Part shown: piece after piece, positions 16,524 through 52,622 of the stretch | Layout: each line of letters opens with the position of its first letter | Numbering within the stretch: position 1 is the first letter of the stretch | NCBI RefSeq assembly: GCF_006345805.1 | Contig: NC_042997.1 | Span: forward strand, 174,592,001 to 174,656,000 | From: Octopus sinensis | Lineage: Eukaryota | Direction: 5' to 3' | Length of the DNA: 64,000 nucleotides | Notes under the pieces: model-generated | What the model saw: only the letters and a program-made list of their open reading frames with translations | Told to the model about the DNA's origin: nothing | Databases searched by the model: none | Position numbers and translations under genes: made by a program

Positions 16524-16593
16524 CCTGCTGAAGAAGGCTTTGCCTAGCAAATCATTTTATTTGTTAAATAAAGTCTGAAACCATTGGTCCAGG
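16524..16593 (+). ncRNA. Type I hammerhead ribozyme motif, intact core
   Basis: cctg-CTGAAGA-aggcttt...aaagtct-GAAAC-cattg-GTC-cagg: stem I cctg/cagg, 7-bp stem II, short self-complementary stem III, GUC cleavage triplet. Confidence 0.85.
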
Positions 16594-16994
16594 AGTTAGA
16601 TGGTAAATGTTTTCATTTTTCATTCCCTTCGATATTATATCCGTAATAGTGGTTCGGATTTTAACTGTCCTCTCTAACGTGCGGGTAGTCCTATGATAGC
16701 TACCTCTTATATGTTTAAATGTACACTGTATTTATATGAATAATATATAGTCTATTGACTAAATTTTTACACGCTAGGCTACTGGTAATGGAAATTTCTA
16801 ATACTTCAGATTACCCTTTGATATTGATAATTATTAGATAATTTTGGGGGATAATTTTCTAAATGAAAAAGCCGGCATATTTATTTACTGCCGACAAGGA
16901 GCTGCGCTTGCGTTGTAAATTTGAAATATAAAAATGTATAAGCACGGGGCATACACTGGATTGCCACGTGTATATATATTTAATCTAAGGTGTA

Positions 16995-17064
16995 CTTGCT
17001 GAAAAAGGTTTCGCCTAGCAAATTATTTTATTTGATAAAAAAAGTCTGAAACCATTGGTCCAGG
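16995..17064 (+). ncRNA. Type I hammerhead ribozyme motif with G8A core mutation
   Basis: cttg-CTGAAAA-aggtttc...aaagtct-GAAAC-cattg-GTC-cagg; paralog of 16524. Confidence 0.7.
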
Positions 17065-18474
17065 AGTTAGATGGTAAATGTTGTATTTTTCATTCCTTTC
17101 GATATTTTATCCCAAATTGTGATTTGGAATTTAACTGTCCTTTCTAGCATGCAGGTAGTCCTATGATAGCTACCTCTTATGTGTTTCAATGTACACTGTA
17201 TTTATATGAATAATATATAGTCTATTGACTGAAGTTTTACACACTAGGCCACTGGTAATGAAAATTTCTAATATTTCAGATAACCCTTTGATACTGTTAA
17301 TTACACACACACACACACACACACACATATATATACATACACATACAGACAGCCAGATATATTTATTTATGTATGTATGTCTGTATATACATGTGTATAT
17401 ATACGTATGTATCTATGTATATGTGTAGGCATACTGCGCACATACACAAATCAATTGTTATCTATATATTGTGGTAACTATGTTTGTCTTTACGCACCAG
17501 GTCGTAATACAAGTGCACATGTATTAAATACATACTGATATATATATACATACATATATATGTGTGTCTATGTATGTATATATATATATATATATATATA
17601 TATATATATATGCATGGAGGTGGTGCACCAGCATGACCTCAGGCCTCGGCTGAAACCAGTATGAGATATATATATATTTATATATACGTATGTGTGTTTG
17701 TATATTTATATATATATATCATACATTTATATATATGCATACATACACATATACACAAACACACACACAGAAGCACACACTCACACACACACATACACAC
17801 ACACACACACACACACGCACACACACACACACACATATATATAAATATAAATATATGTATATATATTGTTTGTAATGTGTGTGCGTGTGTGTGTGCACAT
17901 ACGCACATGTATGTTACTGGGGTGACGAGTTAATGGGAGCAGAGTCAACCCATTTATAATACAGAACTTGAAGTGAGAAATCCAAATATGAATCCGTCTA
18001 ATCCATAGTCGCGAATCCAACTGTATATACATGTGTGCCTGAGTGTGTAACTGTATATGTGCCACTGTGTGTATGTGGTGGTGTGTGTTTGCATGTGCGT
18101 GTTTGTGTGTGTGTGTGTGTGTGTGTGTGTGTGTGTGTGTGTGTGTTTGTGTTTGTGAGTGTATGTGTGTGTTTGTTTGTGTGTATATGTTATGTATTAA
18201 AGATCACATGAATGTCATTTTAATCCAGGCCGGTATATCCCGATTAATATAATATAAACATTAAGTCTGTATACACAATGTGTTCACAGACAGAAAGAAC
18301 AATCAGCTGCGCATGCGTATTTCAGCTCTGTTTCGTCGACAGTTTTATACCTTCCTTAATTTGCTGCACACTTTTGCTTCTAAACCCACTCACTAACATT
18401 GGTTGCTAAAGTTAACTGCATAGACCAAATTGCATGTGTAACATTTCCTTGTCATCTTAATAGTGTTTCATTTC

Positions 18475-18760
18475 CATGGCTGTATGGTTAGGACAATCGT
18501 TTTGAATCCACATAGTTTTATGTTCAGTGTGTGTGTGTGTGTGTGTGTGTGTGTGCACGTGTGTGTGTCTTTGCGTCTGTGTTTGTCTCCCCACCCATCG
18601 TTTGATAGTTGGTGTTGGTTTATTTAAAAACTCGTAACATAGCGGTTCGGTTGAAGCGACAGATAGAATGAGTACCAGGCTTTGAAAAAAACTAATTACT
18701 ACATTCGATCTGTTCTACTAAAGTCTAAGGCATGGCTGCAGTCTAACGACTAAAACACCT
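18475..18760 (+). mobile_element. SINE family B, degenerate
   Basis: atggctgtatggtta...(TG)n...cgtaacatagcggttcgg...catggctgcagtc. Confidence 0.65.
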
Positions 18761-48975: not shown

Positions 48976-49436
48976 TGATTAGTGTTGTTGTTTAAGGCAC
49001 TAAATGAACAGATTCGTTAGAGCGTCAGAATAAACTGCTTTATAGAATTGTTTCAACACTTTACTTCCTTAATTCAGTTCCCGTTGAGATCAACTTCGTT
49101 TTTCGTCCATCCAGGATCGTTAAATAATATAGCAGTAGAATACTTGGATCGATACTATCTGCTACTCTATTTTCCTCAAGATTACTGGCTGTACTTATAT
49201 TTAAGGCCAGAATTGTTAGCACACCGAGGAAAAAAATGCTTAACAACATTTCGTCTCACCAGGGTCGGCTTTGCATTTCATCCCTTCAGGGTTGATAAAA
49301 TAAAGTACCAGCTGAACATTGGGGTCGATTTGAACTAAGTAACCACTTCCTCAAAATTGTTGGTCTTTTGCCAGAACTTGAAACAGTTATTGTTATTATT
49401 TATTTATTTATTTATTTATTTATTTATTTATGGTGT

Positions 49437-49938
49437 CTTCTTTCTTCTTCTTCCAATCAGGACTCACGCCATTAGCCACAAAGAATAATCTCTAATTCGA
49501 GCCTACTCTAAGCTACTAAGAATGCGTGTGGCAACTTGAAAATCCACCTACCATACGCGATAGACTGGCGGTTGCACGGGCGCGAAAGCTACGTTGTTAT
49601 CCTCATTCCGTAAACAGTGGCTTTTAACAGGTGGAGAGCTGAAGCATCCTGGGGTACAGAGGATTCGCAATCTAGACTAGGGTGTGAAAGTTTACCACAC
49701 CATAGTGGGTTACACCATGGTTCCTCTGCTTTGTGGCAGAAGTAGGAAGAAAGAGTGAGAGAAAGTTGTGGTGAAAGAGTACAGCTAGGTTCACCAGTAC
49801 ACCCCTCCTCCGCCGGAGCCTCGTGGAGCTTAGGTGTTTTTGTTCAATAAACATTCATAATGCCCGGTCAGGGAATCGAAACCGCGTTCTTACGACCGCA
49901 AGTCCACTGCCCTAACCACTGGACCATTGCGCCTCCAC
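49437..49938 (-). mobile_element. SINE family C with body type 3 and (GAA)n tail
   Basis: Reverse complement of 30854-31365. Confidence 0.85.
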
Positions 49939-52390
49939 AGGCGCAATGGCATGGTGGTTGTTGTTGTTGTTGTTGTTAGAGATTCGGACAAAATGTTGTT
50001 AATTATCAGTCCCGAATTCTTACATGCTGAATTCATACCCAACCGAGACCAACGTTGGACTTTGATCATTTCTAGGTCTGTTAAACAACACCAGCTAAAC
50101 ACAGAGAACGGCGGTTTCATCTCACCTATCTTCAAATTTCAAGGATTGCGCAGATTAGATTTTATTATATATACTTTATATCATAAAAAAATATCACTGA
50201 CCAGCAAACAAATTGTTCTCTGAAACTATAAACAACGGTCTGGATACTTCTGGTTAACGGGGTCCCAGAATCCCTTGCACCATAGTCTTCGTAAAACGGA
50301 AAAAACTGCTCTCTTGTGACTTACACAAGAGCGATTAGCATATTTGTGTTCGAATCTGCCAGAACGTATTAAGATTAAAAATGGAAGTCATCGGTTTATT
50401 TTGGCTGTAGTGTTCGTATTCAATTGTACGATTTTACACTTGTTTTGTTGTTGCTGTTGACATTGTTGTTCAATTCGTTGGTTGTGTCATGAATAAAATA
50501 GCTATAATGACAAGCTAATTTTTAAAAACACCACACATAACCAAAGTTGTAATTTTTTTTTAAAAAATACAAATTAATGAATTAATAAATAGACTGGTAA
50601 CTTCCTAAAAATAAATTTAAACTGTCAGAAAATAAATCGAATTAATAAGTAAGAATGTACATGAAAGAGTCATTTCGTCAAATTTACTGTTATCTATTTT
50701 TATTTATCTCACTCCACTCGTTCCATCTCATCCCCAATTTATTCCTTTCAATCAATCAACGGTGTTTATATATTTCTATTCCACAACAACAAAAAAAGAT
50801 CATTAAACAATAAATAAATAAATGTCGAAAATAATTTTTAAAAATATGATTATCTGCAAATTAAATACATTAATAAATAAGCGAGTAAATGAAAAAAATG
50901 ATTGCATTTCATCTCACTCCACCACTTTCTCTCTCTCGCTCGCTCTCTCTCTCTCTCTCCCTCTCTCTCTCCCTCTCTCTCATATTCACAAACACACACA
51001 CATACACTCACACATTTTCTGTCTGTTTATTTCGATTCATCGCCAATATTTTCTATCAAAATCTCATATTTCCGTGAATATAATATATTCTATTATGTAT
51101 ATTTCCTATACAAAATATTTTTAAAAATTAACAAAATAAAAACAAGAATAAAATTTAAATACATTGGAAATGAATAAACGAATTAAAAAAAAACACTAAT
51201 TCTGAAAAAGAAGACAGAATTAATCCATGAATTTATCTATCGTTCTCTCGTCTCTTTCTTCAACACCCTTCTTAACACGGTGTCGTCTGCTTTCTTTGAA
51301 AAAAAAAATTTACATTTGAAACATCGTATTGTCTGTCGTCCATATCTCACAACTTCAATATTCACCTGAAGTATTTTTCGTTCTAATCTAGTTTATAGGG
51401 AAAACATTACAGATAAAATTAATTTTCCATTCGTTTTTCATTTTGTATTTTTGTCATTTTTCATCAGTTTATCTGTTGCTATCATCATTCTTGTTGATGT
51501 TGATATTATTCTTAAAATTTCTTAGTCTTTACGATTTTTATTTGTACGTCAATGCCATTTTGTATCTATAACTTACCTCATTTCATTCATTTGACATCTA
51601 ATACTCTGTGTGTGAGAGAGAGAAAGAGAGAGAGAGAAAAGAGAGAAAGAGAGAGAGAAAAGAGAGAAAGAGAGAGAGAAAAGAGAGAAAGAGAGAGAGA
51701 AAAGAGAGAAAGAGAGAGAGTGTTTGTGTGTGCTTGTGTTATATGTGCATTCATAAAAAGTAGCACACATTACCAATTTACATAAACACACACATATTCA
51801 TATATATATATATACACACACACATGAGCACACACACATATATACATATACATGTATATATATATATATATATATATATATATATATATTATATATATAT
51901 AACTCACACACACGAGTACACATATATATATATACATTTATATATATATGCACATACATATATATGCATGTATATATATATATATATATGATACACACAT
52001 ACACACATACATATATATATGTGTGTGTGTATGTGTGTGTGTGTATGTGTGTGTATGTGTGTGTTTGTGTGTGTGTCCCAGTGCGTGTGCTCACATGCAC
52101 ACACATAAGCATAACACACGCAATAACTCACACATAATCACTTTGTTTATCATTTATTTGGCATTTATAGTCTGGAAGTTTGACTGACATCCATTTTTTC
52201 ACAGATGAACACACACAGACACAAGGATAATGCAGTCACGCATTCCACGGAGATACACACACACACCCAAACACGCACGCATACATACATGCATACATAC
52301 ATACAAACATACGTTTGTAATGTCAGTATGTATATATGCATATATATATATATATATATATATATATATATATATATATATATATATATA

Positions 52391-52622
52391 CTTTATTTAA
52401 AGCAGCAGAAAATTCAACAAAATCTGTTACTCTGAGTTTCTCGTAGCCGTTCATCAGACAGTTTTGTTAGAAAGTACAAAAACTGTCTGATGAACGGCAA
52501 CGAGAAACTCAGAGTAACAGATTTTGTTGAATTTTCTGCTGCTTTAAATAAAGCATATTACTCTACCACTGGTATTGAGTACTCTTTTTTCCACCTTATT
52601 TCACATTTATTTGTTTACTCCG
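52391..52622. mobile_element. PLE-type terminal repeat in fold-back arrangement (palindrome 52391-52553)
   Basis: Near-perfect ~75-bp arms; same family as 20707-20932 in opposite orientation; inside (TA)n. Confidence 0.8.
52483..52520 (+). ncRNA. Minimal type I hammerhead ribozyme motif (mirror copy on the minus strand at 52424-52461)
   Basis: ctgt-CTGATGA-acggcaacga-GAAAC-tcaga-GTA-acag; canonical core, stem I ctgt/acag, GUA triplet. Confidence 0.8.

Follow-up and report, generated by a model that had tools for sequence, protein, structure and literature searches.

Minimal hammerhead ribozymes of metazoan Penelope-like elements (PLEs) were described by Cervera and de la Pena (2014; PMC4209133) as motifs of low activity that cleave as dimers. 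The role of PLE hammerheads in retrotransposition is debated: they cleave poorly, are dispensable in vitro and are absent from some clades. The subject here is a set of hammerhead-type motifs in a stretch of 64,000 nucleotides (nt) of the 2.72-Gb genome of Octopus sinensis, termed the window (G000:C1:174592001-174656000), and the repeat families to which they belong. The window is microsatellite-rich and has ten motif copies, decayed arms counted, from five repeat families (A–E). Sequence comparisons suggest that the motifs are probably the ends of repeat families, three of them tied to PLEs, with predicted slow, minimal type I hammerheads in which swaps of the core 3:8 pair were selected, and that the window copies are mostly fossils.

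Several related systems have been characterized. Perreault et al. (2011; PMC3088659) reported natural covariation from C3-G8 to U3-A8 and a U4C change in a viroid, as well as the natural occurrence of a 2-bp stem II and a 10.1-11.1 mismatch. Frangieh et al. (2024; PMC11167929) engineered C3G and G8C in a Poseidon PLE hammerhead; the single mutants were dead and the double mutant was partly active. Cleavage in that system is protein-assisted, and reverse transcription starts internally, 111–118 nt into the unit. G3:C8 is found elsewhere as an engineered variant also in PMC3884650. Retrozymes of the kind lacking long terminal repeats (non-LTR) consist of tandem 150–450-nt units, each holding a single type I motif (Cervera and de la Pena, 2020, PMC7229834; Li et al., 2026, preprint 10.64898/2026.07.22.740005). 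Naiad PLEs do well in the absence of canonical motifs, PLE copies truncated at the 5′ end and accompanied by inverted partners have been described, and a CX2-5CxxC linker before the endonuclease is tied to Neptune PLEs (PMC8557442).

The 3:8 pair in three sister families

One PLE lineage comprises three sister families that have the motif on the same scaffold, with G3:C8 in family A, C3:G8 in family S and U3:A8 in family T. Core states were determined by genome pattern searches in which positions 3, 4, 7 and 8 were left free, and tallies refer to the first 100 matches listed. Family A gave 4,539 matches in the genome and none in the control; the 100 listed comprise 92 with G3:C8, none with C3:G8 and eight with single departures. 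A tighter pattern gave 1,750 matches, and 91 of the 100 listed have G3:C8. Family A copies found without upstream query sequence carry a 7-bp stem I. Contigs under four other organism labels show no core variant at 5% or more, and the stem changes listed for them include wobble-preserving ones and CpG decay. Within the genome, two subfamilies, A1 and A2 (87% protein identity), differ in the motif only in loop II, and G3:C8 is common to both although this loop has changed.

Family S, whose protein is 54% identical to that of A, has the motif in the same position and with the same scaffold, and displays C3:G8. Relative to A it shows double changes in stem I, in stem II and at 15.2-16.2 (stem III). 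In an A/S alignment of 16 distinct rows, 92% of cells are paired (26–47% in slid controls). Double changes are found in seven of 15 pairs, but as these are mostly single events on the one A/S branch, and the shuffle test ignores relatedness, the shuffle numbers are not probabilities. In family T (about 54% identity to A and 60% to S), nine of the ten copies with a core read UUGAAAA; two of these nine are neighbours and may represent one duplication. Families A and S share G5, A6, GAAA and U16.1 without exception, and T keeps them too. A tree of 15 reverse transcriptase (RT) rows separates A, S and T into three clades at 100/100. It is unrooted, because the outgroups (family B and locus L153) gave no usable alignment, and the order of the swaps is therefore not shown by it.

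Three compensated versions of an active-site pair within a single lineage are a signal of the kind to be expected only under selection for the catalytic fold. We infer that 3:8 compensation in the master lineages reflects selection on the active fold. The reversed G-C pair of a family of 4,500 copies, together with U-A and C-G in its relatives, makes it likely that self-cutting was kept by selection. If so, selection of PLE hammerheads for cleavage would have direct support from evolution. The A, S and T motifs provide a natural mutant series for the 3:8 pair. Apparent covariation had been read from the window families in the preliminary description of this stretch. Core letters that differ between unrelated families do not by themselves amount to covariation, and that part does not hold; covariation does appear between the related families A, S and T, outside the window.

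Two side observations concern these families. G3.G8 copies of family A might have represented an older, intermediate subfamily, but this is not supported, as they number one of 100 listed in the search with 4,539 matches and three of 100 listed in that with 1,750. The S loci (L291:4863-4912 and others) constitute a young PLE family with intact open reading frames (ORFs) that has mostly C9, and A9 in a few copies.

Core states of families B to E

Family E is nearly uniform at the core: 99 of the 100 listed (608 matches) have U3:A8, and of four runs of other organisms compared with it, three show no core change at 5% or more and the fourth gave no matching sequence. The UUGAAAA core at position 21147 is accordingly the family state, and its explanation as a junction artefact was rejected. 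Related organisms (runs X11, X16 and X17; compare L231:4194) have a form of family E in which four letters are added to the 3′ strand of stem I, and this form may have a longer stem I than E of the window genome.

Family C gave 463 matches; the 100 listed divide into 59 CCGA, 18 CUGA, 16 CCAA and seven others. CUGA and CCAA are symmetric, as CpG decay from a CCGA (C4) master would make them, and the opposite reading of CCGAUGA, as decay from CUGA, was rejected on this ground. C4 is thus likely to be the master state of family C, and its canonical-looking CUGA copies are likely the derived ones, a situation that would mislead descriptor-based counts. In family B, 34 of 50 arms have CUGAUGA and six of 50 CCGAUGA, the latter mostly in one subfamily with other changes. 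The family D core is canonical.

The cores named in the preliminary description are all present at their positions. Its proposal to see whether variant cores are fixed within families is borne out by the tallies for A and E, and by the likely C4 master of C. Its compensatory swaps, U3:A8 and G3:C8, are both family states, the former an already published one.

Elements carrying the motifs

Families A, B and E are tied to RT/GIY-YIG genes of endonuclease-bearing (EN+) PLEs. An ORF fragment lies upstream of the family A motif in L214, and a protein search with the family A ORF gave 150 matches. In most A loci with sufficient flank (30 protein-search loci and extensions), the G3:C8 motif is located ∼0.9–1.3 kb downstream of the ORF. 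The family A element includes an open frame of 1,042 amino acids with DKSG, YGLRKDHK, DVVSLY, RYVDD, CX3CxxC and YIGET, and we take the motifs of this and the other element ORFs to be those of RT and GIY-YIG proteins. ESM Atlas neighbours of the A ORF are RT/GIY-YIG/HTH_animal clusters at 0.96–0.97; Pfam gave no match on the A and B ORFs, and a PDB sequence search with the A ORF gave 0 matches. The CX3CxxC linker fits the CX2-5CxxC feature linked to Neptune, a lead suggesting that the A ORF could belong to the Neptune clade.

The family B motif is found ∼1.1 kb downstream of, and on the same strand as, an ORF bearing motifs of the RT end and of GIY-YIG type in all three extended loci (L236–L238), where a short copy in inverted orientation is also present at the 5′ end. 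In family E, a GIY-YIG ORF (Pfam PF01541, above cut-off) lies upstream of the motif in two of three extended loci (L231 and L239). 5′ truncation, an inverted partner copy and AT-rich or microsatellite targets are seen in these families. In L236, L153 and L291, the PLE ORFs have an inverted duplication of their own 5′ part, which forms long palindromes.

Family D is present in the window as a head-to-tail tandem dimer with a unit of 471 nt. A separate tandem repeat family of 353 nt (691 matches; L301–L306; G000:C1:148255722-148257162) carries one minimal hammerhead of canonical form per unit and is a retrozyme-like array. Two further small families with a U3:A8 core (L134:352, L201:9402 on the minus strand, and L034) are represented by three sampled copies each, with A8 in two of three in one of them. 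Matches of a three-copy U3:A8 family with the 353-nt C3:G8 family are short and incompletely collinear, and homology is not claimed.

Chance level and density

All five families show the three-way type I layout, i.e. stem I, core 3–9, stem II, GAAA, A15.1-U16.1 and H17. A strict descriptor was used in which G5, A6, A9, GAAA, U16.1 and H17 are fixed and which demands a perfect A15.1..U16.1 palindrome as well as stem I and stem II. It finds four sites in the window (16528, 52487, 52457 minus and 28944 minus) and none in each of 100 block-wise dinucleotide shuffles of the window. The topology that had been ascribed to five families is therefore real, palindrome included, but it extends to five of the ten window copies, weakly for E: the copy at 47260 is without stem I, both arms at 20.8 kb are dead, and stem I at 21147 has only 2 bp, followed by a G.G mismatch.

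The same descriptor gives 17 matches in 799,700 random genome bases, and 0 and 0 in the reversed and complemented controls. This density, ∼21 per Mb, would extrapolate from the random sample to some 58,000 strict motifs genome-wide, and the high density inferred for this genome in the preliminary description is supported. With positions 3 and 8 free, 14 of the 17 are Watson–Crick at 3:8. The other three are two G3.G8 copies of family A and one C3.A8 copy; the latter is a decayed copy of the 353-nt family, which has C3:G8 in 99 of 100 listed, and a fixed C3.A8 family was therefore rejected. The same tally resolves the one exception among 39 motif groups (not all of them distinct families), of which 38 have a Watson–Crick majority at 3:8.

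Rfam hammerhead models have no match at gathering score in seven loci, and none at E ≤ 10 on stretches of families A and C. In the window, no hammerhead is present among 150 listed of 397 rows; the Rfam matches there are microRNA-like, lie on simple repeats or fold-backs, and are, in the listed rows, below gathering score, i.e. artefacts. Thus, whole families escape both CUGANGA descriptors and Rfam (exact-pattern matches: A, 4,539; E, 608; C, 463), in agreement with the expectation that CUGANGA-only searches miss variants. Many families (L243, L295, L254 and L242) also have, like D, a very long stem II of 40–65 nt with inner hairpins, and these would be overlooked by short-stem descriptors.

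Motif copies and other features of the window

The features are collected in Table 1. The family form is kept in half of the copies (D at 16528, B at 52457 and 52487, C at 28944 and E at 21147). The remaining five are defective, namely D at 16999, the two B arms near 20.8 kb, the plus arm of E and A at 47260. Stem I is missing from the family A copy, whose start is an inversion junction, 47235–47262 being an inverted piece of its own tail. The copies of B, E and A sit in head-to-head fold-backs with predicted energies of −118.8, −114.8, −79.2 and −56.7 kcal/mol; these would hide the motif if the region were transcribed by read-through. A diversified ribozyme population had been proposed for this genome. 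The motifs are indeed of hammerhead type and dense; they are mostly 5′-truncated PLE ends of a published kind rather than an unexplained zoo, and since decay affects half of the window copies and fold-backs enclose most of them, the term overstates the active share.

Palindromes or quasi-palindromes of 6–9 nt (stem III) are present in all five families, and the minimum-energy dimers of B, C, D and E use them. Family A copies fold as monomers exactly into stems I and II.

Table 1. Motif copies and their surrounding elements in the window.
Feature	Position	Strand	Remarks
Family D motif, copy 1	16524..16593	+	CUGAAGA core, 4-bp stem I, 42-nt stem II with inner hairpin, 9-nt quasi-palindrome, GUC site; intact
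Family D motif, copy 2	16995..17064	+	C3.A8 mismatch (decayed core), GUC site intact; 471 nt downstream of copy 1, head-to-tail
Family D tandem repeat region	16448..17216	+	Retrozyme-like; no linked ORF; family loci L121–L150
Family B motif	20811..20848	-	CCGACGA core, GAAA to AAAA (G12 lost); predicted inactive
Family B motif	20862..20899	+	CCAACGA core, G5 lost; predicted inactive; head-to-head with 20811..20848 motif
Fold-back pair, 5′-truncated family B ends	20715..20967	.	
Family E motif	21109..21150	-	UUGAAAA core (U3:A8), C.A at stem II foot, AGCGCU palindrome, weak stem I
Family E partner arm	21193..21221	+	Cut off inside stem II, without core
Fold-back pair, 5′-truncated family E ends	20950..21336	.	
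Family C motif	28901..28948	-	CCGAUGA core (C4, C3:G8), 7-bp stem II, 8-nt palindrome, GUA site; intact as in family
Family C element body around motif	28837..29166	-	No ORF tied with confidence
Family A motif	47260..47303	+	GUGAACA core (G3:C8), extra G, 5-bp stem II, AAUAUU palindrome, UUU site; stem I 5′ strand absent in copy
Family A truncated end	47235..47437	+	Inverted tail piece 47235–47262, then sense copy 47260–47437
Family B motif	52424..52461	-	Canonical CUGAUGA, 2-bp stem II with A.A foot; intact
Family B motif	52483..52520	+	Canonical CUGAUGA; intact; head-to-head with 52424..52461 motif
Fold-back pair, 5′-truncated family B ends	52356..52622	.	

Among the 138 longer ORFs of the window no host exon and no RT or endonuclease was found. 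The single solid Pfam match is a Tc1/Tc3-type transposase fragment with a helix-turn-helix domain at 21864–22178 on the plus strand (PF01498, E = 2e-12). Dispersed repeats of 180–350 nt, 84–93% alike, are located at 4078–4427/48061–48410, at 9981–10251/31614–31849/45397–45796 and at 30986–31220/49561–49795; these probably resemble short interspersed elements. A local, microsatellite-rich duplication with a spacing of ∼2,028 nt is found at about 5900–6750 and 8000–8790.

Proposed course of events and alternatives

The predicted hammerhead would slowly cut the element's own tandem or read-through RNA, as a dimer or with the help of the element protein. Reverse transcription probably starts about 110–175 nt behind the motif, runs back through it and usually stops early; the internal start reported in PMC11167929 explains such a tail behind the motif. 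Early stopping would often add an inverted piece and create the short fold-back copies, which would then decay neutrally, and selection on the master copies would have kept the 3:8 pair.

A number of observations weigh against this reading. The covariation amounts to two branch events among three lineages rather than many independent ones. G3.G8 is present in two long A copies on one contig (L214 and L253) and in five of the 63 members of the largest motif group. Of 16 S or S-like rows, 13 are CUGAUGC or degenerate and only L076 and L299 have CUGAUGA; C9 in this family would indicate either that cleavage is dispensable there or that C9 is tolerated. Stem I of family E has a G.G mismatch in 91 of 100 listed and a pair-restoring C in six of 100, and C4 is tolerated in the successful family C. 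The foot of stem II (10.1-11.1) is mismatched in most copies of B (A.A), C (A.G) and E (C.A); with the extra G followed by G-C in A, the odd foot remarked on previously is present in four families, and D, at 16528 as in its family, has an A-U pair there. C9, a broken stem I, C4 and a 10.1-11.1 mismatch are all expected to slow or kill cleavage. The minimum-energy dimer of family A does not use stem III, and its gain in cofolding is small (−1.9 to −3.0 kcal/mol). For C and D, no ORF could be tied to the motif with confidence in two extended pairs of loci each. Lastly, in the data reported in PMC11167929, insertion in vitro did not need cleavage, and reads ending at the cut site were absent.

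The main alternative is that the motifs are of hammerhead descent and are now kept mainly as a fold, for example as a protein-binding or template signal, with cleavage weak or dispensable and the swaps left over from selection that was earlier or relaxed. C9 in most S copies, the weak stem I of E and C4 in C would suit such a fold, as would insertion without cleavage (PMC11167929) and the success of Naiad PLEs (PMC8557442). However, the 3:8 pair is part of the active core and is restored in all three sister families, and the residues invariant in A and S are kept in T. Retention as a fold appears on balance unlikely.

Founder effects, in which a master copy changed by chance was amplified and Watson–Crick pairing at 3:8 is a coincidence, would agree with thousands of copies from few masters, for which reason fixation alone says little, and with there being only two swaps in the A/S/T lineage. 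Yet these two swaps, and U3:A8 in E and in a three-copy family, are all Watson–Crick, no fixed 3:8 mismatch family occurs among the 39 groups (again, not all distinct families), and G3:C8 persists through A1 and A2 despite the change in loop II; coincidence is thus improbable. That the window copies are working ribozymes that process host transcripts is very improbable indeed, for although five of ten keep the family core and the two tandem D copies on one strand could pair within one transcript, the other five are broken, the B, E and A copies are buried in fold-backs of −57 to −119 kcal/mol, and the ORFs include no host exon. Slow hammerheads selected in the master copies of the elements remain the preferred reading.

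Comparison with known systems

The minimal PLE hammerhead is published already, as are U3:A8, the additional base after A9, the palindromic stem III, U4C and a 2-bp stem II. A study by Lunse, Weinberg and Breaker (RNA Biol 14:1499) reportedly treats small PLE-tied hammerhead variants that cleave as dimers, and may already list G3:C8. No natural case of G3:C8 was found in the literature searched, which did not extend to figures or to the text of that study. Tentatively, and with slightly less than an even chance, G3:C8 would be the core of a working natural ribozyme of an autonomous, high-copy PLE family in several related species, in a lineage that explored three Watson–Crick versions of the pair. 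If so, relaxed searches would uncover many thousands of overlooked ribozymes.

The motifs resemble those of PMC4209133, in the parts of that source considered, in having a short stem I, a palindromic 15.2-16.2, an extra base after A9 and a location behind the ORF, as well as in their opposite-strand pairs and the many families per genome. The U3-A8 variant is known from the same source (about 1,300 matches in Schistosoma). The present families differ in that a single lineage shows the pair in three versions, and in the 10.1-11.1 mismatches in B, C and E, the C4 master in C and C9 in S; G3:C8 is not mentioned in the parts of that paper considered or, by word search, in one of its two supplement files. 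Nor is G3-C8 listed in the core-variant section of PMC3088659, figure 5 apart, and the RNAs treated there mostly have tertiary loops, which are not evident in the motifs described here. Family D, with its 471-nt unit, and the 353-nt family resemble non-LTR retrozymes in their tandem units with a type I motif in each, whereas A, B and E are the ends of coding elements. As to the reversed pair itself, what is a laboratory mutant in the experiments cited from PMC11167929 is here the fixed natural state of a high-copy family.

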